Shown: positions 2,035 to 60,962 of the stretch, piece after piece
Layout of the letters: each line of letters opens with the position of its first letter
How positions within the stretch are numbered: position 1 is the stretch's first letter
Origin: Acidobacteriota bacterium
GTDB lineage: Bacteria > Acidobacteriota > UBA6911
NCBI GenBank assembly: GCA_037444305.1
Contig: JBBIMP010000029.1
Span: 2,758 to 66,757 of the forward strand
DNA length: 64,000 bases
Reading direction: 5' to 3'
Position numbers and translations under genes: made by a program
Notes under the pieces: model-generated
What the model saw: only the letters and a program-made list of their open reading frames with translations
Database searches by the model: none
Told to the model about the DNA's origin: nothing

Positions 2035-5000
2035 ATGTTTAATCGAAGCAGCCGAATGAAGTTGCTTTCATTTTGGCTACTTTTTGCCGTGGCAATGCTC
2101 TCCGTGGCGCCCCAGTCCCTGGCCCAGGGAACCTCCGGCACCATCACCGGTGTCGTGAAAGACCAGTCGGGCGCCGTGGTTCCCGGGGTGACGGTTACGG
2201 TCCGTAGCCTCGAGACCAATGCCGGCCGGACGGTGGTTTCCGCCGCCGACGGGCGCTACACGGTCCCCGGCCTGACCCCGGGACCCTACGAGGTAACGGC
2301 GGAGCTGACCGGATTTGCCAAGTACGTCCGCTCCCCGATCAACCTCCTTCTGAACCAGAACGCGATCGTCGATCCGGAACTTCGCCCCGCAACCGCGGCC
2401 GAGACCGTGATCGTGACCGACGACGCGCCGCTGATCAACACCACGACCTCGGAAGTGGGCGTGCGCTTCGATGAGAAGCGGCTCTCCGACCTCCCGACCC
2501 TCCCCTCCGCGGGCGGCGGATTCCGCGACGTGTTCGCTTTCGCGCTTTCCGCGGCCGGAGTCAGCCAGCTCAACAGCGGGAATTCGGGCTTTGCCGCGGG
2601 CACCAACTTCTCCTCCAACGGGATGCGCCCGCGCGGCAACAACTTCATGGTGGACGGCCAGGACTCCAACGATCCGAGCGTTACCGGTAGAACCCAGGTC
2701 ATGAACAACCCGGACATCATCCGGGAGTTCCTGCTGGTGACCAACCAGTTCCAGGCCGAGCACGGCCGCGCCGCCGGGTCGGTCGTGAATGTCGTCACCA
2801 AGAGCGGGACGAACGAATTCCACGGCTCGCTGTTCTGGTTCAACAACAACAACGCGCTGAACTCGCTGAGCAACCTCGACAAGGCCGCCAAGATGACCGA
2901 GGCGCCCTTCCGGATTGAAAACCAGTTCGGAGGCACCCTGGGCGGGCCCGTGCTCAAAGACAGCATGTTCTTCTTCGGGTCGCTGCAGCGCTGGACCGAC
3001 CGGCAGATCGGTTCAGGGAGCACCATCACCGGCATCCCGACCGAGGCCGGCCGGGCAACCCTCCAGACGGTGGCCGGCAGCAGGCCCCAGGTGCAGGCGC
3101 TGTTGAAGCACCTCCCCGCCGCCACCACCCCGATCAACAAGACCGTGGCGCTGACCGTCGGCGGCCAGACCTACCAGATCCCGGTCGGCTCGCTGACCAA
3201 CTCTGCCGGCGCCACTTTCAACAACTGGCAGTGGTCGGGCCGCATCGACAAGACTCTGGGGAATCATTCGCTCGGAGGACGCTACCTTTACAACAACAGC
3301 GTCTCGGACGGTACTGGGCAGGCGACGCCTCCAGGCCTTACTACCTACGTTCCCTCGCGCCAGCAGGCAATGTCTCTGTTCCTCACGAGCAATCTGACCC
3401 CCAAAACGCTCAACGAGGCGCGGATCTCCTGGCAGAGGCTCGGAACCACAACCACGGCAGCCAACCCCGTTTCTGAGGAAATCCCCTCTCTGGAGATCAC
3501 AGAACTGGGTTTGACCGGCTTCAACGCCGCCGCCAGCCGCACGGCCGTCGGCCTCGCGGTCAACCTGCCGCAGTACCGCTTCAACAACACCTGGCAGCTG
3601 CAGGATACGATGTCGTGGATTCACAAGAACCACACCATCAAATTCGGGATCGACTTCCGCCGGATCGACGTGAAGAGCTTCTTCTTCCCGACCATCCGCG
3701 GACTGCTGCGCTACCCGACGCTGCAGCGCTTCGTGGACGACATTGCCGAGGCGGCCAACATCAACAAGCCCCTGCCGGGCGGCCAGGAGATCAACTACTA
3801 CGAGTGGAGCGACTACCACGCGTTCATCCAGGATACCTGGAGGGTGACGCCGCGGTTTACGCTCAACTTCGGCCTCCGGTACGAGCGGCCGGGCAACGCC
3901 ATGGCAAGCCTCTTCCCGCTGAACGAAAAGATCGTCCAGACCAACGGCGGCAACGCCGTCTTCCAGTTGAAGCCCAAGCCGGGCGACGACAACAACAACT
4001 TCCAGCCCCGAGTAGGATTCAGCTGGAATCCCGAGACCGGAACCGACGGCATCCTCGGCTGGCTGACCGGCGGCAACAAACTGGTCATGCGCGGCGGCTA
4101 TGCGCGGACGAACGACTACCAGTTCATCAACCTCGCGCTGAACGTCGCCAGCGCCTTCCCTTATGTGGCGGCCATCAACAGCTCCAACCTGGCCAATGCC
4201 TGGACGGTGCTGCCCAACCAGAGGGCCGACCTGAGCAACCCGGCTTCGTTGAACCTGCTTACCCGGACGGTGCTGGCGGAGGACTTCCGCGCGCCGATCG
4301 CCGAGCAGTTCTCGCTGGAATTCCAGCGCCAGATGGCGGCCAATACCGTCCTGCGCCTCGGCTACGTCGGGACCAAGGGGACGGGCCTGTTCCAGACAAT
4401 CGACGGCAACCCGCGGACCAAATGCGCCACGCCGCCGAACTGCCCCAGGGTGGATCCCCTGGCCGGCGTGATCCGGCTGCGCGCGAACGCGGCCGCCTCG
4501 ATCTATCACTCGATGCAGCTGAGCTTCGACAAGCGCTTCTCCAAGGGCTTCAGCGGCGGGTGGCACTACACCTGGAGCGCCTTCATCGACGACGCCTCCG
4601 ACACGTTCAATCCGTCGGTGCGCGGCGAGGTGGCGATTTCGCAGGACTCGTTCGACCGCCGCTCCGACCGTGGCCGGTCGACCTACGACAGGCCGCACCG
4701 CTTCTCGACCAACTTCGTCTACGAGCTGCCGTTCTTCCAGAATGACTCCGGCGCCCTGCGCCACATCCTGGGCGGCTGGCAGCTCGCCTCGTTCATCACC
4801 CTGCAGAGCGGATCGCCCTGGGGGCCGCTGAACGGAACCGATCCCGCCGGCGCGCTGGCGGGGATCGACGGCCTGGTGGGGAACGCCATCCGGCCGAACA
4901 TGAACACCAGTATCGCCGTGTCCAAGCTGTCGGTCGAAGACCTGCTGGCCCAGGGGGGCCGTTCCCTGTTCTCCACGCTGCCGACCAACGGTTCGCAGCG

Positions 5001-5247
5001 CGTCGGCAACGCGGGACGGAACATCCTGCGCAGCGACGGGATCGCCAACTGGGACGTCAGCATCAAGAAGAACATGCGCGTGACCGAGACCAACACCCTC
5101 GAGTTCCGGCTCGACATGTTCAACGCCACCAACACGCGCAACTTCGGCATCCCCGAGGCGCGCGTGAACAACGCCGGCTTCGGCAACCAGTGGGGCACCG
5201 ACGGAGGCAACCGCAGGATCTTCTTCGCCCTGCGCTACGCCTTCTAA
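2035..5247 (+). CDS. TonB-dependent receptor with N-terminal carboxypeptidase-regulatory-like domain (Acidobacteria-type outer membrane receptor).
   Basis: Signal peptide MKLLSFWLLFAVAMLSVAPQSLAQG, then GTITGVVKDQSGAVVPGVTVTVRSLETNAGRTVVSAADGRYTVPGLTPGPYEVTAELTGF (CarboxypepD_reg), then a roughly 900-aa beta-barrel ending ...FFALRYAF with aromatic C-terminus. Start 2035 chosen by the GAGAGG RBS. Confidence 0.85.
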   Translation: MFNRSSRMKLLSFWLLFAVAMLSVAPQSLAQGTSGTITGVVKDQSGAVVPGVTVTVRSLETNAGRTVVSAADGRYTVPGLTPGPYEVTAELTGFAKYVRSPINLLLNQNAIVDPELRPATAAETVIVTDDAPLINTTTSEVGVRFDEKRLSDLPTLPSAGGGFRDVFAFALSAAGVSQLNSGNSGFAAGTNFSSNGMRPRGNNFMVDGQDSNDPSVTGRTQVMNNPDIIREFLLVTNQFQAEHGRAAGSVVNVVTKSGTNEFHGSLFWFNNNNALNSLSNLDKAAKMTEAPFRIENQFGGTLGGPVLKDSMFFFGSLQRWTDRQIGSGSTITGIPTEAGRATLQTVAGSRPQVQALLKHLPAATTPINKTVALTVGGQTYQIPVGSLTNSAGATFNNWQWSGRIDKTLGNHSLGGRYLYNNSVSDGTGQATPPGLTTYVPSRQQAMSLFLTSNLTPKTLNEARISWQRLGTTTTAANPVSEEIPSLEITELGLTGFNAAASRTAVGLAVNLPQYRFNNTWQLQDTMSWIHKNHTIKFGIDFRRIDVKSFFFPTIRGLLRYPTLQRFVDDIAEAANINKPLPGGQEINYYEWSDYHAFIQDTWRVTPRFTLNFGLRYERPGNAMASLFPLNEKIVQTNGGNAVFQLKPKPGDDNNNFQPRVGFSWNPETGTDGILGWLTGGNKLVMRGGYARTNDYQFINLALNVASAFPYVAAINSSNLANAWTVLPNQRADLSNPASLNLLTRTVLAEDFRAPIAEQFSLEFQRQMAANTVLRLGYVGTKGTGLFQTIDGNPRTKCATPPNCPRVDPLAGVIRLRANAAASIYHSMQLSFDKRFSKGFSGGWHYTWSAFIDDASDTFNPSVRGEVAISQDSFDRRSDRGRSTYDRPHRFSTNFVYELPFFQNDSGALRHILGGWQLASFITLQSGSPWGPLNGTDPAGALAGIDGLVGNAIRPNMNTSIAVSKLSVEDLLAQGGRSLFSTLPTNGSQRVGNAGRNILRSDGIANWDVSIKKNMRVTETNTLEFRLDMFNATNTRNFGIPEARVNNAGFGNQWGTDGGNRRIFFALRYAF

Positions 5248-5270
5248 CCGGCCGTCCCGCGACCGGCTCC

Positions 5271-5311
5271 ATGGCTCCGGGGGCGCGTTGCGCTCCCGGA
5301 GCTTTTTTATT
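5271..5311 (+). terminator. Rho-independent terminator of the TonB-receptor gene.
   Basis: Hairpin ggctccggg-ggcgcgttgcgct-cccggagc followed by ttttttatt. Confidence 0.6.
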
Positions 5312-5384
5312 CCCACGCTCCTTGTGCAAAATGGGGGCGTTCGCCGTCGCCGCCTTCGTGCTGGCTCTTCAATGCGACCTTCCT

Positions 5385-5535
5385 CGGTGGCTCCGCGCTT
5401 CTGCTTCTGCCAATCATGCTTGCCGGCCGGGAGTCCACGGAGCCCGGAGCGACAGCGACGGGTCGCGCTGCTTGACCGGGTTGCAGGACCGCTCACTGGC
5501 GTTCGCGGCTTCCGTTTGCCGCGTATCTTCAATTC
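5385..5535 (+). repeat. Copy 1 of the modular interspersed repeat family (modules C-A-linker-B-C'), forward orientation.
   Basis: Shares ctgcttctgccaatcatgcttgccggccgggag, gcccggagcgacagcgacgggtcgc and gaccgctcactggcgttcgcggct(t)ccgtttgc with the copies at 22125 and 59490. Confidence 0.7.
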
Positions 5536-5610
5536 GGCTTTCCTCGGTTGCGGCCTCGGAGCGCAAGGCAGCTCGCCGGTGGCTTTTGTCTCCCGATCCG
5601 CTGCTCGTGC

Positions 5611-5651
5611 CAAAACGAAAAGGGGCGACCGCCTGTTGGCGGCCGCCCCCT
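5611..5651 (-). terminator. Probable terminator of nuoM (minus strand).
   Basis: Inverted repeat ggggcgaccgcc-tgtt-ggcggccgcccc. On the minus strand it is followed by TTTTCGTTTT. Confidence 0.45.
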
Positions 5652-5672
5652 GAAGCCGTGGGCCGGATCCCG

Positions 5673-7232
<1,560 letters not shown>

Positions 7233-7294
7233 CGGATCGAACTCCTTGTGTTATGAGCCTTCAAGCCCGTGGTCGCCCCACGATCCTGCCGGCG

Positions 7295-9352
7295 CTACAG
7301 CCTCACGAAGTCGTTGTAGAAAATGAGGACAAACACGATGATCCCCACCACCGCAGCCAGGGCGTACCGCTGGACCAGTCCGGTCTGGAATGATGTGGCG
7401 ATCCGGTTCAGGGCCATGTTGAGCCAGCCCACGAAGTTGACGAGGCCGTCCACGACATACTTGTCGAAGATCCGCGAGACCGTGGCCGTCACCCGCGTCG
7501 TGGCCGCGGTCCCGTTGACGGCGCCATCCACGAACTGGGCATCCACGAACCAGCAGCCGTCGGCCAGGTCCTTGGTGCGGTTGACGAACAGGGCGTCGTA
7601 GGCCTCGTCCACGAAGTATTTGTGGAACACCAGGCGGTACAGCCCGCGGAACCGCTCGGTGATCCTGTCCGCCGTTCCGGGTCGCTGGACGTAGAAGCGA
7701 TAGGCCAGGAAAATGCCGGCAGCGGCGATGAGCACCGACAAGCCCGTCAGGGCGAGCTCCTCCGCCACCGAGTGGTGGGCGTGCGCCGCGGCGGTTTCCG
7801 GCACCCGGAGCACCGGCGAGAGGAAGTGTTCGAACCGGTTGGCCATGCCGGTCCAGGCGGGCAGCCCGACGTACCCGCCGACCACCGAGAGCACCGCCAG
7901 CGCCACGAGCGGGTACGTGACCCTGCGCGGCGATTCCTGCAGATGGTGCCGGGTGTGGTCATCCATCCGCTCTTCACCCCAGAAGGTCAGGAACACAAGC
8001 CGGAACATGTAGAACGCGGTCATGCCCGCGCCGGCCCACAGCAGCGCCCAGATTACCGGATGGCCGTTCGCCCACGCCTTCCAGAGAATTTCGTCCTTGC
8101 TGAAAAACCCGGCGAGCCCGGGCACGCCCGCGATGGCCAGCGTCCCGATCAGCATCGTCCAGTAGGTGTAGGGCAGATGCTTTCGCAGGCCTCCCATTTT
8201 CATCATGTCCTGCTCGTGATGCATCGCCATGATGACCGAGCCCGAGCCGAGGAAGAGCAGCGCCTTGAAAAAGGCGTGCGTCATGAGATGAAAGATCCCG
8301 CCGACAAAGGCGCCGACTCCGAGCGCGGCGAACATGTAGCCCAGCTGGCTGACCGTGGAATAGGCCAGCACACGCTTGATATCCGTCTGCGCAAAACCTA
8401 TGGTGGCCGCGAAGATCGCCGTCAAGGCGCCCACCACCGCCACGATCATCATCGTTTCGGGCGCGCGCGCGAAAATGGCATTGCAGCGGCAGACCATGTA
8501 GACGCCGGCGGTCACCATCGTGGCCGCGTGGATCAGCGCGCTGACGGGCGTCGGGCCCTCCATGGCGTCCGGCAGCCAGGTGTAGAGCGGGATCTGCGCG
8601 CTCTTGCCCGTCGCCCCGATGAAGAGGCAGATGGTCGCCCAGAAGAGCCAGCCGAATCCATCCTGCACCGGCATCTCGGCAGCCTTGCTGAAGACCTCCT
8701 CGTAGCGCAGCGAACCGAAGTGCGCAAACAGCAGCATCATCCCCAGGATAAAACCAGCGTCGCCGATGCGGTTGACCACGAAGGCCTTCTTCCCCGCGTC
8801 TCCCGCGCTCTTCTTCTCGAAGTAAAAACCGATCAGCAGGTAGGAGCAGAGCCCTACGCCTTCCCAGCCCACGAACATCAGGACGAAGTTGTTCGCCAGC
8901 ACGAGCGTCAGCATGGCGAACATGAAAAGATTCAGGTAGGAAAAAAACCGATAGTATCCCGAGTCGTCCCACATGTAGCCCGTGGAGTAGACGTGGATGA
9001 GGAAGCCGACGCCGGTGACGACGAGAATCATGACGGCCGAAAGCGGATCGAGCTGGAATCCCCAGGGCACCGTAAACTCCGCCAGGCCTCCGCCCGCCAT
9101 GGGGAGCTTGCCCGCGTTCATCCAGGTGAACAGGTCCGCCGAATAGAGCTTGTCCGGCGTCAGGACGAACAGCTCGTAAGTCGCCGCCGCGGAGACGAGA
9201 AACGAGAGGGCGACCGCGGTGAGCGCGATGAAAGAGACCGTCTTCTTACTGAGCCGTTCCCCGGCGATCCGGAGCTTGAAAAGGCCGTAAATTCCGATCA
9301 ACGCGCTGCCGGCAAGGGGGAAGAGCGGGATCAACCAGATGTAGTTCAACAT
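7295..9352 (-). CDS. nuoL: NADH-quinone oxidoreductase subunit L (NuoL / ND5 family).
   Basis: 685 aa with TWLPDAMEGPTPVSALIHAATMVTAGVYMVCR and a long C-terminal extension typical of NuoL. Confidence 0.85.
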   Translation of the reverse strand: MLNYIWLIPLFPLAGSALIGIYGLFKLRIAGERLSKKTVSFIALTAVALSFLVSAAATYELFVLTPDKLYSADLFTWMNAGKLPMAGGGLAEFTVPWGFQLDPLSAVMILVVTGVGFLIHVYSTGYMWDDSGYYRFFSYLNLFMFAMLTLVLANNFVLMFVGWEGVGLCSYLLIGFYFEKKSAGDAGKKAFVVNRIGDAGFILGMMLLFAHFGSLRYEEVFSKAAEMPVQDGFGWLFWATICLFIGATGKSAQIPLYTWLPDAMEGPTPVSALIHAATMVTAGVYMVCRCNAIFARAPETMMIVAVVGALTAIFAATIGFAQTDIKRVLAYSTVSQLGYMFAALGVGAFVGGIFHLMTHAFFKALLFLGSGSVIMAMHHEQDMMKMGGLRKHLPYTYWTMLIGTLAIAGVPGLAGFFSKDEILWKAWANGHPVIWALLWAGAGMTAFYMFRLVFLTFWGEERMDDHTRHHLQESPRRVTYPLVALAVLSVVGGYVGLPAWTGMANRFEHFLSPVLRVPETAAAHAHHSVAEELALTGLSVLIAAAGIFLAYRFYVQRPGTADRITERFRGLYRLVFHKYFVDEAYDALFVNRTKDLADGCWFVDAQFVDGAVNGTAATTRVTATVSRIFDKYVVDGLVNFVGWLNMALNRIATSFQTGLVQRYALAAVVGIIVFVLIFYNDFVRL

Positions 9353-9661
9353 AAATTCCTACTTTTTCCGGGAGTTCGGCGTGGGCTTGCAGCCCCAGTG
9401 CCGTGAGTGCAAGATTCCCCGCAACCTTTCTGCTTTCAACCGTTCGGCGGCACCGGCGCATCGCTGCCGTCTCCACCTTCGAGCCGCTCCAAAAAAACGC
9501 TCTAACCTGAGCATCTTCAATCAGTAACACTCAGGAAGAGCGGCTCTTAGTAACACAGCGTTCCACGGATTGTCAATGCAAAATACCCGCCAAAGAAGCT
9601 GTGCGCGGGGATGGCTTCGGCTGCGGCGTGTTGGCTGTCCGATCTGCTTGCGGAATCCGCT

Positions 9662-14875: not shown

Positions 14876-14876
<1 letters not shown>
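13209..14876 (-). CDS. GT-C fold membrane glycosyltransferase (ArnT/PMT, GT39/83-like).
   Basis: About 11 predicted TM helices plus a roughly 130-aa C-terminal soluble domain. Start taken at MGETSAIS (14876), whose ATG overlaps the asnS stop (TGATG). The ORF-track extension to 15809 runs out of frame through asnS. Confidence 0.6.
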
Positions 14877-16167
<1,291 letters not shown>

Positions 16168-16168
<1 letters not shown>

Positions 16169-16755
16169 CAGCCATCCTTTCCATCAACCGGAAAAAGCAT
16201 GAATCCCGCCTTCAGGCCCTTCGTTTTGCAGTGATGCAGATAGAGCGAATAGTAGCTGTCGCGCAGGAATCCGGAGGCAGGGATCCCCAGCGCTTCCGCC
16301 GTCCGGCGGATTCCATCCTCCTCCCCTTCGATCTCCAGAAAATCCCCGATCGGCGTCTCGTCCAGCGCCAGGTGAACCGTCGGTCCCCCGCTGCCGAGGG
16401 GAGCCAGCCGATACTCACGGCGGTACTTCTGGTAGCGGAAGGCCACCCTCAAGCCCAGGCGAACCAGGATCTCCAGCAGGACCTTCCCGTCCGCGATCCC
16501 TGTTTCCAGCTCCTCGCGGATCTTGAATACCGCCGAGTCTGCGGGAGGGCCCTTGAAGGTCAGCAGAGAAGCGTTCGCAGTCTCCCGGATGCGCAGCAGG
16601 CACCTTTGGGCCCCGAGCCGGCCATCCTTGAAATCCAATACAAAGTTGTCCTCGAAATGCCGGGCCGCCGATTCCCTCGCCAGCATCATCTCAATCCGCC
16701 GCTGAATCGCCTCGCGATCCGCCAGCTCGACCTTGACCTCGGTCTCCTTTTCCAA
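16168..16755 (-). CDS. CYTH-domain protein (CyaB-like class IV adenylyl cyclase / triphosphatase fold).
   Basis: [18 protein letters not shown] matches the EIExKF start of CYTH domains. Start proposed at TTG 16755 ([10 protein letters not shown]), preceded by GAGGTGG. The stop TGA overlaps the asnS ATG. Confidence 0.55.
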
Positions 16756-16864
16756 GGCTGCCACCTCAACCGCCAAAGCTAATAACCACGGCCGCACAAT
16801 GCAAGCACAAAAGCAACCGGCACCGAGCAAATCACTTCGACTTTTTTGTCGCCTTGCGCGTCAA

Positions 16865-17110
16865 AACGGATGTAGATGAACAAGGGGTGCAGCCGCAACC
16901 AATGGCAGGCAAGGGGAGGAAAGCCGTGTTGACGGCACACGGCAAACGGAGCCCCGAACGATAGTGAGGGGTTGGGCAACCCAACTCACCATTGTTGCTC
17001 CTATCGGTCTTACGGGCACAGCCTGCATTTGGGCGGCCTGACCCGTCGCTATCGCTCCGGGCTCCGTTGAATTCCGACCGGCAAGCAAAAGCGGCAGACG
17101 GAGCGGCCTT
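16865..17110 (-). repeat. Copy 2 of the modular interspersed repeat (reverse orientation; C'-B'-linker'-A').
   Basis: acccgtcgctatcgctccgggctccgttga is the reverse complement of module A. ggcaaacggagccccgaacgatagtgagggg is the reverse complement of module B. Confidence 0.6.
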
Positions 17111-17420
17111 TAACCACTGCCGATGAGTTTCTCCACTCGCGGGAAAGATTTTGCGGGTTAGCGGCACAGAGAGACACGGAGTAAAACACTCTTGAGCAAC
17201 GGAGACTCCCTCACCTTTCTCGGCCCCGATGAGCACATCAACGTCATATTCAGATTCGGGGATGAGACACGATACCTGCGGACGGGCGAGGATGCCGGCC
17301 CGGCCCAGGAAGTGATGACAGTCCGCAAATCGGTCATCACCGAATTCAAAGCGGGCAGGCTGACGATGGAGGGATTGAAGCAGAGAATCCCGATCTATTG
17401 AAACCCGGCTGCGCGGCCCG

Positions 17421-18419
17421 TCAGACGCGGTGCTTGCGTAGTTCTATGCCGCACTCCTTCAAGAGGTCCAGGGCGCGCTCATTCAGCGGATATTCCTGGT
17501 TGTAGACCACCTCGGCAATCCCGCTGTTGATGATCATCTTGGTGCAGAGCAGACAGGGGGCGAACGTGGTGTAGAGCGTGGCGCCCTTGACGCTGGTGCC
17601 GTGATAGGCCGCCTGGGTGATGGCGTTCTCCTCCCCGTGGCTGCACAGGCACTCCTCCAGTGCGGTCCCGCTGGGGGCAAGCTCCGCGCAGCGCGGGCAC
17701 CCCCCCTGGTTGCAGTTGCGCGCCCCGCGGGGCGTGCCATTGTAGCCTGTCGATATGACCCGCTTGTCCTTCACGATGATCGCCGCGACGCGGCGCTTCA
17801 GGCAGTTGCTCCTGGAGGCGACCACGGCGGCAATGTTCATGAAGTACTCGTCCCATTCCGGCCGTTCGAAAGTGCCGGCCAGGCGCGGCACCAGACCGGC
17901 CAGCTGGAGGTGCAGGTCCGCCAGCGAACCGTTGTTCGTGACCGTCACGTCGGCGAGATCCAGCGTGGCCAGCAGCTGCTGGTTTGCGGGCTCCTTGCTC
18001 GCCAGTTCCCTGTCCTCCAGCGCACGGAATTGCTCCAGCGTCTGTGCCGCGCGTTCCCTTGCGCGCCGGCGGCTCCTTTCGAAGCGGAGCTCCAGTGCGG
18101 CATCGACCGCCAGCAGGCGGAAGTCCTTGCGCCGCCGCAGAACGCCAACCTCGGCGGGATTGCGGATGGAATCGACGACGCAGCTTTTGTCGCGGTCGAG
18201 GCGCAGGAGGATGCGTTCGGCGAGGATGCCAGGCCCGAACCGCGTCCGCAGATCATTGCCGACCTCGATCAGCGTCTCGCGCGTGATTTCCCGGCCGCGG
18301 CTGCGGATCTCTTCGCGGACTTCGTCCGAGAGGGAGTGGTATTCGAAGCCCCGGGTGATGAGGTAGTTGGAAACCTCGGTTTTGCCCGCGCCGTTTCTGC
18401 CCGTCAGTCCGATGATCAT
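17421..18419 (-). CDS. Fusion protein: N-terminal P-loop nucleotide kinase-like domain plus C-terminal deoxycytidylate (dCMP/dCTP) deaminase domain (AvcD / defensive dCTP-deaminase architecture).
   Basis: N-terminus MIIGLTGRNGAGKTEVSNYL (Walker A). C-terminus WDEYFMNIAAVVASRSNC...GYNGTPRGARNCNQGGCPRC...CSHGEENAITQAA...TFAPCLLCTKMI (CDA zinc motifs HxE and PCxxC plus the extra Cys cluster of dCMP deaminases). Confidence 0.8.
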   Translation of the reverse strand: MIIGLTGRNGAGKTEVSNYLITRGFEYHSLSDEVREEIRSRGREITRETLIEVGNDLRTRFGPGILAERILLRLDRDKSCVVDSIRNPAEVGVLRRRKDFRLLAVDAALELRFERSRRRARERAAQTLEQFRALEDRELASKEPANQQLLATLDLADVTVTNNGSLADLHLQLAGLVPRLAGTFERPEWDEYFMNIAAVVASRSNCLKRRVAAIIVKDKRVISTGYNGTPRGARNCNQGGCPRCAELAPSGTALEECLCSHGEENAITQAAYHGTSVKGATLYTTFAPCLLCTKMIINSGIAEVVYNQEYPLNERALDLLKECGIELRKHRV

Positions 18420-18484
18420 GAGTGCAGATTGTCGGGTATAAGCGCCCCGGGTGTCAATGCGGCGTTTCCGTAAATATGTAAACG

Positions 18485-18650
18485 AAAAAGCGTTACACGG
18501 AGGATCACAGAGTAGCACGGAGGTCCACGGAGAAAAACACGACGTCTCCCGCCCCCTGCGGCGGGAGACGTCGCAGATGCCTCGCCGGGCTTTTCTCCGT
18601 GCTCCGCGCTACTCCGTGTATCTCCGTGTGACGCTTTTCTTTTTCGAAAC
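18485..18650. repeat. Large CACGGAG-unit palindromic element with a nested 13-bp perfect hairpin, in the divergent intergenic region.
   Basis: Left arm cgttacacggaggatcacagagtagcacggaggtccacggagaaaaacac. Right arm ttttctccgtgctccgcgctactccgtgtatctccgtgtgacgcttttc. Centre gacgtctcccgcc-ccctgc-ggcgggagacgtc (18541-18572). Confidence 0.7.
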
Positions 18651-18706
18651 TTGATATGAGGGCTCGATTGACTTAAGTTTGCATTACACATCACCGGGGA
18701 ATCCTT

Positions 18707-19297
18707 ATGATCACACGCGAATCTTCCTGGGCCCTCCTAACCGAGTACACCAAGAGCGACAGCCTGCAGAAGCACGCCCTGGCCGTGGAAACCCTGATGC
18801 GCGCCTACGCCGACAAATACGGCGAGGACGCGGAGACCTGGGGGATCGTCGGGCTGCTGCACGATTTCGACTACGAGATGTATCCCACCATGCCCGACCA
18901 CCCGACCAAAGGAGCGGAAATCCTCCGGCAACGGGGGTATCCGGAGGAGATCATCTATGCCATCTCCGCGCACGTGGACGCTCTGGGCCTCCCGCGCAAC
19001 AACCTGCTCTGCAAGGCCGTCTACGCCTGCGACGAACTCGCCGGCTTCCTGTTCGCCGGCGCACTGGTCCGCCCGGGTAAATCGATTATCGGGATGGAAA
19101 CCCGCTCGGTCCGGAAGAAGCTGAAGGACAAGGCTTTTGCCCGCGCGGTCAACCGGGACGACATCTACCGCGGAGCCGAAGAACTGGGGGTCGATCTGGA
19201 CGAGCACATCGGTTTCTGCATTCGCGCCCTGGAGGCCAACGCCGCGTCCCTGGGGCTGGACGGCAGCGCCGCGCCGCCGCACGCAACGGCTACATGA
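18707..19297 (+). CDS. HD/HDIG-domain metal-dependent phosphohydrolase.
   Basis: HALAVETLMR ... GLLHDFDYEM ... AISAHVD give the H...HD...H...D metal ligands. 196 aa. Confidence 0.7.
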   Translation: MITRESSWALLTEYTKSDSLQKHALAVETLMRAYADKYGEDAETWGIVGLLHDFDYEMYPTMPDHPTKGAEILRQRGYPEEIIYAISAHVDALGLPRNNLLCKAVYACDELAGFLFAGALVRPGKSIIGMETRSVRKKLKDKAFARAVNRDDIYRGAEELGVDLDEHIGFCIRALEANAASLGLDGSAAPPHATAT

Positions 19298-19309
19298 CGG
19301 CTTGAGGCA

Positions 19310-20482
19310 TCAACCGTACAGCAGGTAAGGTTCGCGCGCGGCGAGAAACCGGCTGACATCCTCCGCCCAGCTCCCGCGAATCTCATCCGGCGCGGCACCC
19401 GACTCGATCTGCTGCCTCACGAGGGTTCCCCCCGTCAGGATGTCAATCGGCAGCTTTTCGTACTCGTACTCGTAAGGGGGCTGTCGCCAGGAAAAGGATG
19501 ATGGATACAGGCTCCTGATTGCGGCAATCGTGCAGATGCCTGCAAGATAAGGTTCAAAAACCTCGCGGTCGGTTACGTGAAGCTGCACCCCGCCGCATAT
19601 GGAACCGGCATGCTTCTGAAAAGTGGGCTCGAAATGCGCAGCCCGGAAACGCACCCCGGGCAGGCGGAGTTCGTCCAGCCGGCGGGCCAGTTCCGTTCCG
19701 TTGACATACGGCGCGCCCACCAGTTCGAACGGCCGCGTGGTTCCCCGGCCTTCCGACAGTTCGGTACCTTCCACGAGGACCATGCCGGGATAGACGATGG
19801 CGGAATCGAGCGTCGGCAGGTTAGGCGAGGGCATCACCCACGGAAGGCCGGTCTCATCGAACCACTGCGACCGGCTCCAGCCCTCCATGGCGATCACTTC
19901 GAGATCGCACCCGATCCCAAACTCGGCGTTGAACATCCGCGCCAGCTCCCCGACCGTCATGCCGTGCCGCATCGGAATCGGGTAAAGGCCGACGAAGGAA
20001 CGGTATTCCCGGTCGAGCAGGTTTCCCTCCACGCGCGCGCCGTTGACCGGATTGGGCCGGTCCAGGACGATGAACCGGACGCCGTGCTCGGCGCAGGCCT
20101 CCATGCAGTAGGCCATGGTGTAAATGAATGTATAGATCCGGGTTCCGGCATCCTGCAGATCGAAAAGGAGCGCGTCGAGCCCGGCCATCATCTCCGCCGT
20201 TGGCCGGCGGACATCGCTATAGAGGCTGTGAACCGGAAGCCCGGTCCCTGGATCCCGGTAGAACTCCGACTCGATCATGTTGTCCTGCTTTTCACCGCGG
20301 GCGCCGTGCTGCGGTCCGAAAAGTGCTGTTACACGCAGTCCCGGCGCTTCGCAGAGCGCATCCACGGTGTGGCGCAGGTCCGACAGCACGGATGCCGGGT
20401 GCACGACGGCTCCCATGCGCAGACCCTTCATGCCGTTCACCCGGTCCCTCAGAAAAACCTCCACTCCCGTTTTTATCCCCAT
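19310..20482 (-). CDS. DUF1343 family protein (NamZ-like exo-beta-N-acetylmuramidase family).
   Basis: 390 aa. A conserved DUF1343 architecture. Confidence 0.6.
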   Translation of the reverse strand: MGIKTGVEVFLRDRVNGMKGLRMGAVVHPASVLSDLRHTVDALCEAPGLRVTALFGPQHGARGEKQDNMIESEFYRDPGTGLPVHSLYSDVRRPTAEMMAGLDALLFDLQDAGTRIYTFIYTMAYCMEACAEHGVRFIVLDRPNPVNGARVEGNLLDREYRSFVGLYPIPMRHGMTVGELARMFNAEFGIGCDLEVIAMEGWSRSQWFDETGLPWVMPSPNLPTLDSAIVYPGMVLVEGTELSEGRGTTRPFELVGAPYVNGTELARRLDELRLPGVRFRAAHFEPTFQKHAGSICGGVQLHVTDREVFEPYLAGICTIAAIRSLYPSSFSWRQPPYEYEYEKLPIDILTGGTLVRQQIESGAAPDEIRGSWAEDVSRFLAAREPYLLYG

Positions 20483-20713
20483 TGGATCACCTCTGCCCCT
20501 TCCTCACCCGTGCCAAAGGAGTGCTTTTAATCGCTTGACTGGCCGCAAACTCTGTAATTCAATATTGCGAAATTGCATTATGCAGATAGATGCACCGCAA
20601 CGCCACAGCAATGCTCCGAGGCGTACTCCGGCGAATGATCCTCCATCCGGCGGGTGCGCGGACAGGGTGTTGACCGCCCTCCACAAGCCACCCTTTCCGC
20701 CGCAGTGAATGTC

Positions 20714-21253
20714 ATGGATCATACCCTCGTTCTGAATGCCAGCTATGAACCGATCAACATCGTCTCGTGGAAGAGGGCCATGAGCCTCCTCTGCCAAGGC
20801 AAGGTCGAGGTGCTGGCGGAATACGAACGGGAGGTCCATTGCATCAGTTTCTCCATCCGGCTGCCCAGCGTGCTGCGCCTGCTGAAGTATGTGAAAATCC
20901 GGAAAAAATTCCACCACGTGAAGTTCAGCCGGTCGAACATCTATTCCCGGGACCACCACACGTGCCAGTATTGCGGATCCACCTGCTCTGCGGAGAACCT
21001 CACCTTCGACCACGTGATCCCGGTGGTGCGCGGAGGTAGCCGAACCTGGGACAACATCGTGACCTGCTGCTTCTCGTGCAACCGGAAAAAGGGAGGCCGC
21101 ACACCGGAGGAAGCGGGGATGCGGCTGCTGCGCGAACCCAAGGAGCCCAGCTGGGTTCCAACGATGATCCACGTCACCATCGGCTTCAAGAGCGCGCCGG
21201 AGGCATGGAGAGATTTTATTTATTGGAATGTGGAGTTAGACAACAGTTCCTGA
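20714..21253 (+). CDS. HNH endonuclease (small, stand-alone).
   Basis: CQYCGSTCSAENLTFDHVIPVVRGGSRTWDNIVTCCFSCNRKKG is an HNH motif with a zinc ribbon. Start at MDHTLVLNASYEPINIV. Confidence 0.75.
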   Translation: MDHTLVLNASYEPINIVSWKRAMSLLCQGKVEVLAEYEREVHCISFSIRLPSVLRLLKYVKIRKKFHHVKFSRSNIYSRDHHTCQYCGSTCSAENLTFDHVIPVVRGGSRTWDNIVTCCFSCNRKKGGRTPEEAGMRLLREPKEPSWVPTMIHVTIGFKSAPEAWRDFIYWNVELDNSS

Positions 21254-26183: not shown

Positions 26184-26227
26184 GGCGGCAAATCTCGGCT
26201 TCTACCATATAGAGACTTTATAAAAGG

Positions 26228-26306
26228 CCGCGGATTTCACTGATTACACGGACTAACGCGGCCGGCCGCCAGAGAATTGTCCGTGTAATCAGTGAAATCC
26301 GTGGCT
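26228..26306. terminator. CACGGAT-family palindromic element between convergent topA and the M28 peptidase gene. Likely a bidirectional terminator.
   Basis: Arms ccgcggatttcactgattacacggac and gtccgtgtaatcagtgaaatccgtgg with a spacer of about 25 nt. Confidence 0.5.
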
Positions 26307-35918: not shown

Positions 35919-36461
35919 ATGAGCCGGAGAATCGAGGTTCTTCAGGGCGACATCACGCTGCGGAAGGTGGACGCCATCGTCAATGCGGCCAACAGCTCGC
36001 TGCTGGGCGGCGGCGGCGTGGATGGAGCCATCCACCGCGCGGCCGGGCCCCGGCTGCTGGAGGAGTGCCGCACCCTGGGCGGATGCCCCACCGGATCGGC
36101 CAGGATCACCGCGGGGTACAACCTGCCCGCCGCGCACGTGATCCACACCGTCGGCCCGGTCTGGCGCGGCGGCGATGCGGGCGAAGGCGAACTGCTGGCC
36201 TCCTGCTACCGCAAGTCGCTCGAGCTGGCCAGGGAGCACCGGCTGAAATCGGTCGCCTTCCCTTCGATCAGCACCGGCGCCTACCGGTTCCCCGTCGACC
36301 GCGCCGCGCGGATCGCCGTCCGTGAAATCGCCGCCTTCCTGTCCGAACACGACCTGCCGGAGCGCGTGCAGATCGTCTGCTTCGACGCCGCCACCAGGGA
36401 CTGCTACAGCAGAGCTCTCGCCGCTTTTGAGTCCACAGCAGCCACGGATTTCACGGACTGA
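35919..36461 (+). CDS. Macro-domain protein (O-acetyl-ADP-ribose deacetylase, YmdB-like).
   Basis: [37 protein letters not shown] ... [18 protein letters not shown] before the ATG at 35919. Confidence 0.8.
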
Positions 36462-36532
36462 GTGGATTTCTCCATGGTCGGGCCGGCAGCCGCTGAATGG
36501 CTGATTCCGTAGAATCTGTGAAATCTGTGGCC
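36441..36532. terminator. CACGGAT-family palindromic element overlapping the macro-gene stop.
   Basis: gccacggatttcacggactgagtggatttc ... attccgtagaatctgtgaaatctgtggc. Confidence 0.45.
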
Positions 36533-42872: not shown

Positions 42873-43067
42873 ATGAGCATGGAAAGATGGATAAGGCTGA
42901 TCGCGGGGAGTTTCGTCCTGGGCAGCCTGGCGCCGGCATACTGGGTGAACGTCAATTTCCTGTGGTTCACGGCTTTCGTGGGCGCGAACCTGCTGCAGTC
43001 CGCGCTCACGCGCTGGTGCCTGATGGAGGACATCCTGCACAAGCTCGGCGTCGCCCAAAAGCCGTAA
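42873..43067 (+). CDS. DUF2892 small membrane protein (YgaP C-terminal-like).
   Basis: 64 aa. RLIAGSFVLGSLA...GANLLQSALTRWCLMEDIL resembles the DUF2892 consensus with a conserved Cys. Confidence 0.55.
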   Translation: MSMERWIRLIAGSFVLGSLAPAYWVNVNFLWFTAFVGANLLQSALTRWCLMEDILHKLGVAQKP

Positions 43068-43072
43068 AAAAA

Positions 43073-43150
43073 GCGGCCACGGATTACGCGGATTACACTG
43101 TCGCTTGATTTCGTGTAATCTGTGAAATCCGTGGCTGCTGTATTTTTTTG
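43073..43150. terminator. CACGGAT-family palindromic terminator after the czc operon (T-run present).
   Basis: gcggccacggattacgcggattacac ... gtgtaatctgtgaaatccgtggctgc followed by tattttttt. Confidence 0.6.
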
Positions 43151-44978: not shown

Positions 44979-45060
44979 CAGCCACGGATTGCACGGATTA
45001 CACAGATTTTGTTTCCTCTCAATTCGTGTAATCCGTGCAATCCGTGGCTGGAGTTTTTTT
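44979..45060. terminator. CACGGAT-family palindromic terminator (T-run present).
   Basis: cagccacggattgcacggattacacagatt ... aattcgtgtaatccgtgcaatccgtggctgg followed by agttttttt. Confidence 0.6.
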
Positions 45061-46533: not shown

Positions 46534-46584
46534 TGCACGGAGGTCACGGAGAAATTTATTTTCTCCGTGCATCTCCGTGTGACA
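46534..46584. terminator. CACGGAG-family palindrome between the convergent decarboxylase and S9 peptidase genes.
   Basis: tgcacggaggtcacggagaaa-tttat-tttctccgtgcatctccgtgtgaca. Confidence 0.5.
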
Positions 46585-49724: not shown

Positions 49725-49746
49725 AGGCTGCGTCCACCAAAACCTC

Positions 49747-49801
49747 GGCCACGAATTGCACGAATTTCGTGGAATTCGTGCAATTCGTGGCCGTCGTTTT
49801 T
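49747..49801. terminator. CACGAAT-variant palindromic bidirectional terminator between qor and the aminotransferase gene.
   Basis: ggccacgaattgcacgaatttcgtggaattcgtgcaattcgtggcc followed by gtcgttttt. Confidence 0.6.
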
Positions 49802-55389: not shown

Positions 55390-55429
55390 GTCTCCGTGCT
55401 TCTCCGTGGACCTCCGTGTGACGCTTTTG
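55390..55429. repeat. CACGGAG-family half-element (three ctccgtg units) in the divergent region between the cPGS-like gene and mutS2.
   Basis: gtctccgtgcttctccgtggacctccgtgtgacgcttttg. The AT-rich stretch 55331-55386 is adjacent. Confidence 0.5.
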
Positions 55430-60906: not shown

Positions 60907-60962
60907 AAAAGCGTTTCACGGAGGTTCACGGAGCAGCACGGAGGCCTCCGTGTAATGCTTTT
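60907..60962. repeat. CACGGAG-family palindromic element in the divergent region upstream of the F420 cluster.
   Basis: aaaagcgtttcacggaggttcacggagcagcacggagg-cctccgtgtaatgctttt. Confidence 0.5.

Follow-up and report, generated by a model that had tools for sequence, protein, structure and literature searches.

The question raised by this locus is whether a gene joining a P-loop, nucleotide-kinase-like domain to a deoxycytidylate deaminase encodes the toxin of an anti-phage system or an enzyme of ordinary nucleotide metabolism. The gene lies at positions 17421-18419 (stop codon included) on the minus strand of the window, the 64,000-nucleotide stretch of Acidobacteriota DNA that was analysed. 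An earlier note on this DNA related the product to AvcD and the defensive dCTP deaminases and proposed regulation, as in AvcID, by an RNA from the structured region immediately upstream, while allowing that it might instead be a housekeeping dCMP deaminase fused to a dNMP kinase. This alternative fits the results better, given the leaning of the C-terminal domain towards ComEB and the core-genome synteny described below: the fusion is probably a deoxycytidylate deaminase of the core genome with a housekeeping role, to which a nucleotide-binding or kinase module is joined; it is a short-form relative of AvcD.

Translation of 17421-18419 (minus strand) yields a protein of 332 amino acids beginning MIIGLTGRNGAGKTEV, and calling genes independently on the contig of origin gave the identical start and coordinates. 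A 365-residue open reading frame from GTG at 18518 was rejected since it enters the palindrome upstream of the gene, and both the orthologue matches and the independent gene call start at MIIGLTG. The motifs Walker A GRNGAGKT, WDEYFM, HGEENA, PCLLC and CNQGGCPRC were all found. The catalytic motifs of both domains are intact and are kept across 39 diverse family members; the translation, the motifs and the Pfam matches bear out the description of the product as a P-loop domain joined to a complete zinc dCMP-deaminase domain. The AF2 model of the fusion has a pLDDT of 92.5.

The deaminase domain comprises residues 181-332 (17424-17879, minus strand), with a TGYNGTP loop followed by CNQGGCPRC, HGEENA and PCLLC, and reached 88.6 bits with Pfam dCMP_cyt_deam_1 (PF00383), whose cut-off is 25. 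The domain scored higher with the ComEB model (118.9 bits) than with the anti-phage model (91.6 bits); the whole fusion scored 115.7 bits with the ComEB equivalog TIGR02571, which is below the cut-off of 219.45. A sequence search of the PDB matched the fusion to 2HVV (E=1.4e-22), and the AF2 model of the domain aligned with Streptococcus mutans dCMP deaminase 2HVW with a TM-score of 0.88 and an rmsd of 1.8 Å (Foldseek). The modelled fold is that of the canonical dCMP deaminases (ComEB; 2HVW; T4 Cd, 1VQ2; human DCTD, 2W4L), with which the domain is 29-35% identical and has in common the catalytic zinc motifs, the GYNG loop and the second cysteine cluster. The loop is said to be allosteric in the S. 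mutans enzyme, which is taken here as a lead only. True stand-alone dCMP deaminases of 54-69% identity bear the same CxxGGCxRC site. The canonical enzymes are stand-alone proteins of ~150-190 residues, whereas the fusion adds a P-loop domain of 180 residues.

That domain, residues 1-180 (17880-18419, minus strand), is NMP-kinase-like, with the Walker A motif, SLSD..RE, a Walker B region VVDSIRNPAEV and an arginine-rich LID RFERSRRRARER, all four of which are kept across the 39 family members. Matches to Pfam were AAA_17 (27.2 bits, cut-off 27) and AAA_18 (27.6 bits, below the cut-off of 29.4). The N-terminal domain alone scored 70.2 bits with the PADLOC dCTPase model and about 17-19 bits with CoaE models, so that the comparison proposed in the earlier note, of AvcD-type against CoaE-like kinases, came out on the AvcD side. 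This difference, together with the 99.9% hhalign probability reported below, sets the domain apart from ordinary CoaE/Cmk-type kinases, and with a genuine, separate CoaE encoded 7 kb away it does not serve the cell as CoaE. The score with the NCBIfam antiphage_deaminase model was 41.9 bits and that with PRK08356 (NF006226) was 69.4 bits, under the 189-bit equivalog cut-off. Outside AvcD the best match of the domain is to the UPF0200/PRK08356 proteins (Sulfolobus SSO1041, PDB 3H0K/3LW7). The AF2 model of the domain resembles this adenylate-kinase-related Sulfolobus protein with TM-scores of 0.83-0.87 (Foldseek), and phmmer matched the fusion to 3H0K/3LW7 with E=3e-6. The UPF0200/PRK08356 proteins are stand-alone, ~180-195 residues long and of undescribed function, whereas the domain of the fusion is joined to a deaminase.

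Homology to the defensive deaminases extends over both domains, as the earlier note had held. The PADLOC dCTPase model matched residues 1-311 with 194.7 bits (E=8e-58), and hhalign against a bona fide anti-phage deaminase from an E. coli plasmid gave a probability of 99.9% over 311 collinear columns. AvcD-type proteins and the fusion have in common an N-terminal P-loop domain and a C-terminal zinc DCD domain in collinear arrangement with catalytic residues intact, and specifically Walker A, the VDxI[KR]xPxEV Walker B region, H/CxE and PCxxC. In the proven defence family both domains are needed for toxicity; the P-loop domain of AvcD (also named DcdV, V. cholerae VC0175) is required for deamination itself and was not shown to be a kinase. 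Hsueh et al. reported homologues with the P-loop and DCD domains across many phyla.

Membership in an AvcID-like system was nevertheless not borne out. The fusion scored 140.5 bits with the curated NCBIfam model NF041025, below its cut-off of 400 bits, whereas the true E. coli plasmid member used as positive control scored 498 bits; six short-form relatives (327-353 residues) and two longer ones scored 89-167 bits. Identity to the true E. coli AvcD-type member is 25-26%. The criterion of Tal et al. for the defensive family is a length of >350 residues, and the fusion, at 332 residues, is shorter; AvcD has 532 residues, the E. coli defence protein 576 and the characterised defence members 499-576. 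The fusion is without the ~31-residue N-terminal extension, the ~60-residue insertion in the deaminase domain and the ~80-residue C-terminal tail of the AvcD type, and the mutations K511E and Q514R that render AvcD insensitive to AvcI map to that tail. The E. coli protein has VGRND and the insertion, whereas the fusion has the TGYNG loop and the CxxGGCxRC site. A sequence search of the PDB with either protein found no solved AvcD structure, and no enzyme assay of any short-form member was found in the literature. The fusion is a member of a large short-form clade of ~330 residues, homologous to but distinct from long-form AvcD.

The genomic setting is that of a core gene. Orthologues in related Acidobacteriota loci are 68-77% identical and align over all 332 residues; at least 120 database clusters are 71-77% identical and nearly all exactly 332 residues long. 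At the 50%-identity level 668 clusters matched with E<1e-30, many of them fusions of ~330 residues. Counting only loci with enough flanking DNA and scoring adjacency of NamZ and fusion, of fusion and CYTH, or both, the gene lies inside a NamZ-fusion-CYTH-asnS block in 16 of 16 related loci. The conserved neighbours in the window are, on the minus strand, asnS (14876-16168) and a CYTH-domain gene (16168-16755 in the independent gene call) downstream, and NamZ, an exo-beta-N-acetylmuramidase (19310-20482), which is directly upstream of the fusion gene in most relatives. A collinear block of ~20 kb, fusA-M28-topA-dprA-mqnA-HNH-NamZ-fusion-CYTH-asnS-...-coaE, is common to the window and the 6.9-Mb chromosome of a different species. 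When metagenome loci were anchored on asnS (at least 78% identical, with at least 1.6 kb of upstream DNA) the fusion gene was found in all six. Across loci, identity is 77-82% for asnS, 68-77% for the fusion gene and 55-72% for NamZ, so that the fusion gene is intermediate in divergence. Conserved housekeeping synteny across relatives, one part of what the earlier note had named beforehand as evidence against the defence reading, was found.

Beyond the phylum, relatives 53-59% identical occur in Elusimicrobiota, Spirochaetales and one Micrarchaeota bin, suggesting some horizontal transfer; in Elusimicrobiota the order is pheS-pheT-fusion, and the last part of pheT overlaps the fusion gene. In the Acidobacteriota block the fusion gene is flanked by housekeeping genes, and neither association with defence islands, for which the threshold is a defence score of >0.33, nor a patchy, horizontally transferred distribution was found. 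The full fusion was absent from the phage records searched, and the only full-length plasmid matches were the 25%-identical E. coli AvcD-type genes. A PADLOC scan of five neighbours in the window and five in locus L001 found no defence neighbours beyond generic HNH-motif matches. The HNH gene was rejected as a defence marker since its scores (≤30 bits, with PtuB, REase and Cas9 models) are at the motif level and relatives carry it at the syntenic position.

The divergent gene at 18707-19297 (plus strand, 196 residues) encodes an HD/HDIG phosphohydrolase, matching Pfam HD with 44.3 bits and TIGR00277 with 48.5 bits, as had been supposed. It is present in four of the 15 evaluable loci (the window, L001, L003 and L058 only) and in both orientations, and is a variable neighbour rather than a conserved partner. 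Its recurrence beside the fusion gene in those four loci hints at a possible functional link. The HMM matches of the protein are to generic HD/HDIG models, and a sequence search found no relative in the PDB; a PADLOC Cas3c match (18.5 bits) was weak, at the level of the HD motif, and was not taken as a sign of defence.

The region between the two genes (18420-18706) was the seat of the proposed RNA. The independent gene call placed no gene there, in agreement with the earlier note that these 286 nucleotides are non-coding. Open reading frames within the palindrome (18416-18694, minus strand; 18451-18654, plus strand) were rejected as mirror-image artefacts of palindromic symmetry. In nine orthologous loci NamZ ends 27-129 nucleotides before the fusion start codon, which indicates that the 286-nucleotide region is specific to this genome, and no conserved 5' small open reading frame or AvcI-like RNA locus was found across orthologous loci. 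An Rfam scan of 16000-21000 at a permissive E-value returned only a sub-threshold chance match inside a coding region; no known RNA family is therefore present upstream of the gene.

The structure in the region is an imperfect palindrome of CACGGAG units with a 10-nucleotide period, spanning 18483-18646 (164 nucleotides) and flanked by AAAAGCGTnACACGGAGG ends. Its longest arms, 18486-18522 and 18602-18638, are 37 nucleotides long with 84% complementarity; beyond them, shorter outer arms reach the limits of the element. A perfect hairpin at the centre was reported earlier as 13 bp at 18541-18572; the hairpin is there, although it is 14 bp long, with arms at 18540-18553 and 18560-18573 and a 6-nucleotide loop. 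The upstream palindrome is the largest of CACGGAG units in the window, as noted before. The inverted repeat whose arms are the longest anywhere in the window lies elsewhere, at 16945-17068. Six exact CACGGAG units lie in 18420-18706 and 29 in the window, against 12.7 ± 3.8 expected. Further copies of the palindrome occur at 46536-46579, 55392-55418 and 60909-60960, and a sister family is built of CACGGATT units, amounting to about ten related elements in 64 kb; neither tandem CACGGAG units nor copies of the palindrome were found in 48 related loci. The upstream palindrome is one member of a lineage-specific family of dispersed repeats. The fold-energy z-scores of the region (-9.9 and -8.6) are as expected for a long palindrome of any kind.

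The signals on the minus strand suggest how the gene may be expressed. The centre of the palindrome resembles an intrinsic terminator (18528-18575, minus strand) of 16 pairs (11 G-C) with a 6-nucleotide loop and a TTTTTCTCCG tail, the sole terminator-like site in 16700-19400. It lies upstream of a candidate sigma-70-like promoter, TTGACA-18-GACAAT (18428-18457, minus strand; 10 of 12 consensus matches). The candidate ends 8 nucleotides ahead of the ATG, with no Shine-Dalgarno sequence in sight; the transcript may thus have little or no leader. The consensus scan found no promoter-like site on the minus strand upstream of the palindrome.

These results allow the readings of the locus to be weighed together. 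A type III toxin-antitoxin system like AvcID, in which a toxin depleting deoxycytidine nucleotides is checked by a small RNA from the palindrome and freed when phage stops host transcription, would account for the two-domain architecture with its full-length homology, and AvcI is indeed encoded directly 5' of avcD; the strongly folding region and the terminator-like hairpin on the strand of the gene point the same way. We nevertheless consider it highly improbable: the score with NF041025 and the length are those of a short-form protein, the tail to which the AvcI-insensitive mutations map is absent, the palindrome is one of a dispersed family missing from related loci, the gap to NamZ is short in nine orthologous loci, a promoter that could transcribe it towards the gene was not seen, and the synteny is fixed with no defence genes nearby. 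Since homology to a proven defence family is collinear over both domains, a role in defence or stress may still be considered, and the fusion could be a domesticated or ancestral defence enzyme that has no RNA antitoxin, is fixed in the core genome, is silenced by allostery and depletes dCTP on infection. The breadth of P-loop and DCD homologues among phyla is consistent with such a role, as is the possibility of dual housekeeping and defence functions raised by Tal et al. for distant dGTPase homologues. Lack of a defence-island context, vertical distribution within the clade, a deaminase domain closer to housekeeping ComEB-type enzymes, translational coupling to pheT in Elusimicrobiota and the absence of any sequence sign of an infection sensor make it improbable.

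A further reading overlaps the preferred one and differs from it only in the job given to the P-loop domain. The fusion could be a bifunctional salvage enzyme in which an active (d)NMP or deoxynucleoside kinase is coupled to the deaminase, for example converting dC to dCMP to dUMP or phosphorylating the product. Family-wide conservation of Walker A and B, the NMP-site-like SLSD..RE and the LID agrees with catalysis, and among solved folds the closest is that of an adenylate-kinase-related protein from a crystal containing AMP; each module is also found as a stand-alone protein (P0260, 190 residues, and P0157, 161 residues, for example), and CoaE is separately encoded. No demonstrated substrate is known for any member of this P-loop family, however, and the requirement for the AvcD P-loop in deamination itself, where kinase activity was not shown, weighs against this reading; an active kinase is accordingly judged unlikely. 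Similarly doubtful is the conjecture that P-loop/DCD proteins of ~330 residues are the housekeeping stock from which long-form AvcD arose through the acquisition of insertions, extended termini and an RNA antitoxin, with the Acidobacteriota fusion retaining infection-responsive depletion of the deoxycytidine pool as core immunity and the HD protein serving as a second nucleotide-pool enzyme.

For the housekeeping deaminase that is preferred here, the following scheme is envisaged. The C-terminal domain, a canonical zinc dCMP deaminase, would convert deoxycytidine nucleotides (dCMP, possibly dCTP) to deoxyuridine nucleotides, which would feed thymidylate synthesis. The N-terminal domain, an NMP-kinase-fold P-loop module of the archaeal UPF0200/PRK08356 type, as in AvcD, would bind a nucleotide, whether as a substrate, a donor of phosphate or an effector; by analogy with AvcD the deaminase probably depends on it. 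The enzyme is probably regulated allosterically and transcriptionally in the ordinary way rather than by an RNA antitoxin. The palindrome, a copy of the genome-specific dispersed repeat, would have landed in the gap that arises where the HD gene sits, and at most would insulate, as a terminator-like element, the putative promoter of the gene itself. What the analysis shows is the architecture, the intact motifs, the folds, the homology, the synteny and the dispersal of the repeat; the substrate, the part played by the P-loop domain, the housekeeping role and the working of promoter and terminator are inferred.

The fusion gene is a boundary case for the annotation of defence systems, in that it strongly matches the PADLOC dCTPase model yet is not an AvcID system, as judged from the curated thresholds, its size, the synteny and the missing antitoxin locus. 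Surveys of genomes could for this reason report too many dCTP deaminase defence systems among the Acidobacteriota and in other phyla. The gene also represents a large uncharacterised clade of housekeeping-type dCMP deaminases joined to a P-loop module, and characterisation of one member could explain both the dependence of AvcD on its P-loop domain and the way in which an enzyme of metabolism came to serve immunity.

Sequence comparison, structure modelling and gene order were used to evaluate the 332-residue fusion protein, which is encoded on the minus strand at 17421-18419. The same start was obtained in an independent gene call made on contig CAZIEJ010000019.1 (NCBI GCA_964538715.1, 68,968 bp), which placed no genes between the fusion gene and the divergent HD gene. 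Residues 1-180 comprise a P-loop domain with Walker A (GRNGAGKT) and Walker B (VVDSIRNPAEV) motifs, an NMP-site-like SLSDEVRE sequence and an arginine-rich LID, and residues 181-332 comprise a complete zinc dCMP deaminase domain containing TGYNGTP, CNQGGCPRC, HGEENA and PCLLC. Pfam matches were to dCMP_cyt_deam_1 (88.6 bits), AAA_17 and AAA_18 (∼27 bits) and CoaE (16.8 bits). The fusion of a P-loop domain to a complete dCMP deaminase described in the earlier note is confirmed. The deaminase domain alone scored higher against ComEB (118.9 bits) than against the anti-phage model (91.6 bits), and the N-terminal domain alone scored higher against PRK08356, a family of stand-alone archaeal proteins (69.4 bits), than against the anti-phage model (41.9 bits). 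The AlphaFold model of the protein was confident (pLDDT 92.5); the modelled C-terminal domain superimposed on the Streptococcus mutans dCMP deaminase 2HVW with a TM score of 0.88 and rmsd of 1.8 Å, and the N-terminal domain on the Sulfolobus adenylate-kinase-related protein 3LW7/3H0K with TM scores of 0.83-0.87. A search of the PDB copy yielded no structure of AvcD.

The homology to the anti-phage deaminases is real and extends across both domains. The PADLOC dCTPase model matched residues 1-311 with 194.7 bits and the N-terminal domain by itself with 70.2 bits. A profile of 39 family members aligned with the anti-phage dCTP deaminase of an E. coli IncI1 plasmid (CP057019.1; 499 residues; region 3685-5404 of locus L048), the positive control, at 99.9% probability over 311 collinear columns. 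The AvcD-like architecture proposed earlier is borne out as homology, but membership in the AvcD family fails on several defining features. With NCBIfam NF041025, for which the cut-off is 400 bits, the fusion protein scored 140.5 bits and eight relatives (six of them short-form, 327-353 residues) scored 89-167 bits, compared to 498 bits for the plasmid protein. The plasmid and fusion proteins are only 25-26% identical with 81 gap positions, the longer plasmid form having ∼31 additional residues at the N-terminus, ∼18 in the P-loop domain, ∼60 within the deaminase domain and ∼80 at the C-terminus. The defensive family was defined by Tal et al. as proteins of >350 residues with a defence score >0.33, and AvcD has 532 residues versus 332 in the fusion protein. 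Two of the five AvcD mutations conferring insensitivity to the RNA antitoxin, K511E and Q514R, lie ∼100 residues past the PCxxC motif, whereas the fusion protein stops 41 residues past it; these positions would fall in a region absent from the short form. The plasmid deaminase gene resides on a conjugative plasmid between a relaxase and a phospholipase D gene and is preceded by a 61-residue ORF at the position of AvcI.

The 286-nt region upstream of the fusion gene had been proposed to encode an AvcI-like RNA antitoxin. It does contain the reported CACGGAG palindrome, imperfect and 164 nt long (18483-18646), with six exact units in the region and a central perfect hairpin at 18540-18573, the stem of which is 14 bp rather than 13. 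The palindrome shares AAAAGCGTnACACGGAGG ends and 10-nt-phased CACGGAG units with copies elsewhere in the window: one between convergent genes (46536-46579), a half element upstream of a plus-strand gene (55392-55426) and a copy with three units plus one inverted unit (60909-60960), all three intergenic on a rough ORF map. A sister family of tandem 9-nt units, CACGGATT or CACGAATT (CACGGATTn/CACGAATTn), forms palindromes at 667-687, 26227-26305, 36443-36529, 43066-43145, 44979-45050 and 49739-49800, with 27 pattern matches in the window versus 1.8 expected; together with the 10-nt CACGGAGnnn family it amounts to about ten REP-like elements in the 64-kb window. Since copies occur elsewhere and tandem CACGGAG units were found in none of 48 related loci searched, the upstream element is a lineage-specific dispersed repeat rather than part of the deaminase locus.

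Among the loci compared, the 286-nt non-coding gap occurs only in the window genome. The distance from the end of NamZ to the fusion start codon is 27-129 nt in nine orthologous loci; in two relatives (L003 and L058) the HD gene is co-oriented and its end lies 92-124 nt ahead of the start codon, and in another (L001) a different ORF ends ∼100 nt ahead of it. No promoter-like site for an independent minus-strand RNA across the palindrome was found, and Rfam found nothing in the region. Read on the minus strand, TTTTTCTCCG comes after the central hairpin, which is the sole terminator-like site in 16700-19400. Downstream of the hairpin, TTGACA-18-GACAAT matches a promoter well; it stops 8 nt short of the ATG, and there is no Shine-Dalgarno sequence. 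The simplest reading is that the inverted HD gene sets the fusion gene apart from NamZ, that the fusion gene would be transcribed from its own candidate promoter into a possibly near-leaderless mRNA, and that the repeat would at most block read-through from NamZ.

The divergent neighbor at 18707-19297 is an HD protein as first described, with an HD/HDIG match; its assignment beyond HD/HDIG was not informative and no solved relative was found. A role as a partner is not supported. The protein is well conserved (76-83% identity); the gene is present in only 4 of 15 evaluable loci and in both orientations, divergent in the window and L001 and co-oriented in L003 and L058. The HD gene is not an obligate partner, and it may be loosely linked in function to nucleotide metabolism.

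Other features flank the fusion gene. A plus-strand 69-residue ORF at 17192-17401, convergent with the fusion gene and included in the gene call on contig CAZIEJ010000019.1, has counterparts of 33-42% identity at the same position in four relatives (L001, L002, L004 and L058) and no match in Pfam or PADLOC. Of all inverted repeats in the window, the one at 16945-17068 has the longest arms (40 nt each and 80% complementary, separated by a 44-nt spacer). It falls inside the 436-nt gap that separates this ORF from the start of CYTH; its predicted RNA fold has −74.7 kcal/mol (z = −4.8) with no Rfam match. The gap is missing from relatives in which CYTH begins within ∼60-140 nt of the fusion gene. 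L001 carries additional genes in the gaps to either side of the fusion gene (4647-5898 and 7073-9432 of that locus), among them an ECF sigma factor accompanied by a zf-HC2 anti-sigma factor, a weak matrixin-like ORF and one unknown gene, indicating that the flanking junctions are insertion-prone. The 199-residue HNH endonuclease (HNH_5) encoded on the plus strand at 20654-21253 keeps its place between mqnA and NamZ in the relatives, at 67-79% identity, and has PADLOC matches at motif level only.

The fusion gene shows the conservation of a core gene. Among the 120 best-matching database clusters identity is 71-77% and the length is almost always exactly 332 residues; most derive from Acidobacteriota metagenomes and are named 'dCMP deaminase' or 'deaminase'. 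The 20-kb neighborhood (fusA, M28 peptidase, topA, dprA, mqnA, HNH, NamZ, HD, fusion, the 69-residue ORF, CYTH, asnS, a 555-residue gene that is PMT_2-like in a relative, methyltransferase, a 316-residue gene without a Pfam match, epimerase, coaE, nuoL) has the same gene order as a 6.9-Mb chromosome from a different species, apart from the HD gene and the small ORF. Adjacency of NamZ to fusion and/or fusion to CYTH(-asnS) was found at the ten species-representative genome loci whose flanks were long enough. In an independent test with asnS as the anchor in metagenome contigs, the fusion gene and CYTH were present in all six loci with asnS at least 78% identical and at least 1.6 kb of upstream DNA; the fusion gene was adjacent in none of the loci from other clades with asnS ≤72% identical. 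Identity decreases from asnS (77-82%) to the fusion protein (68-77%) and NamZ (55-72%). In Terriglobales, relatives (53-59% identity) have a different, internally conserved, non-defence context. In two Elusimicrobiota loci (L012 5638-6636; L013 3620-6996), with the order pheS-pheT-fusion, the fusion start overlaps the pheT stop, so that the gene may be translationally coupled to an aminoacyl-tRNA synthetase operon. PADLOC gave no meaningful match among the neighbors, no full fusion was found in phage records, and full-length plasmid matches were only to E. coli AvcD-type genes. The wider family contains 668 clusters (50% identity level) at E<1e-30, many of them ∼330-residue fusions, and each module also exists stand-alone. 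The earlier note had held that its reading would be refuted if the N-terminal domain clustered with ordinary dNMP kinases and the gene were the only dCMP deaminase in a conserved syntenic housekeeping context; a context of this kind was found, but the domain does not cluster with ordinary dNMP or CoaE kinases.

An AvcID-like system of toxin, upstream RNA antitoxin and HD partner is not supported for this locus, given the dispersed repeat, the short gaps in relatives and the lack of a promoter-like site for the RNA. The fusion protein is most likely a constitutive deoxycytidylate deaminase, predicted to supply dUMP and dTMP synthesis, in which the P-loop module is most likely to bind or phosphorylate a nucleotide and, by analogy with AvcD, is probably needed for activity. 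Overall, this is not a new system but an uncharacterized short-form protein related to a defence enzyme, and the short-form fusion is a likely origin of false-positive defence calls.
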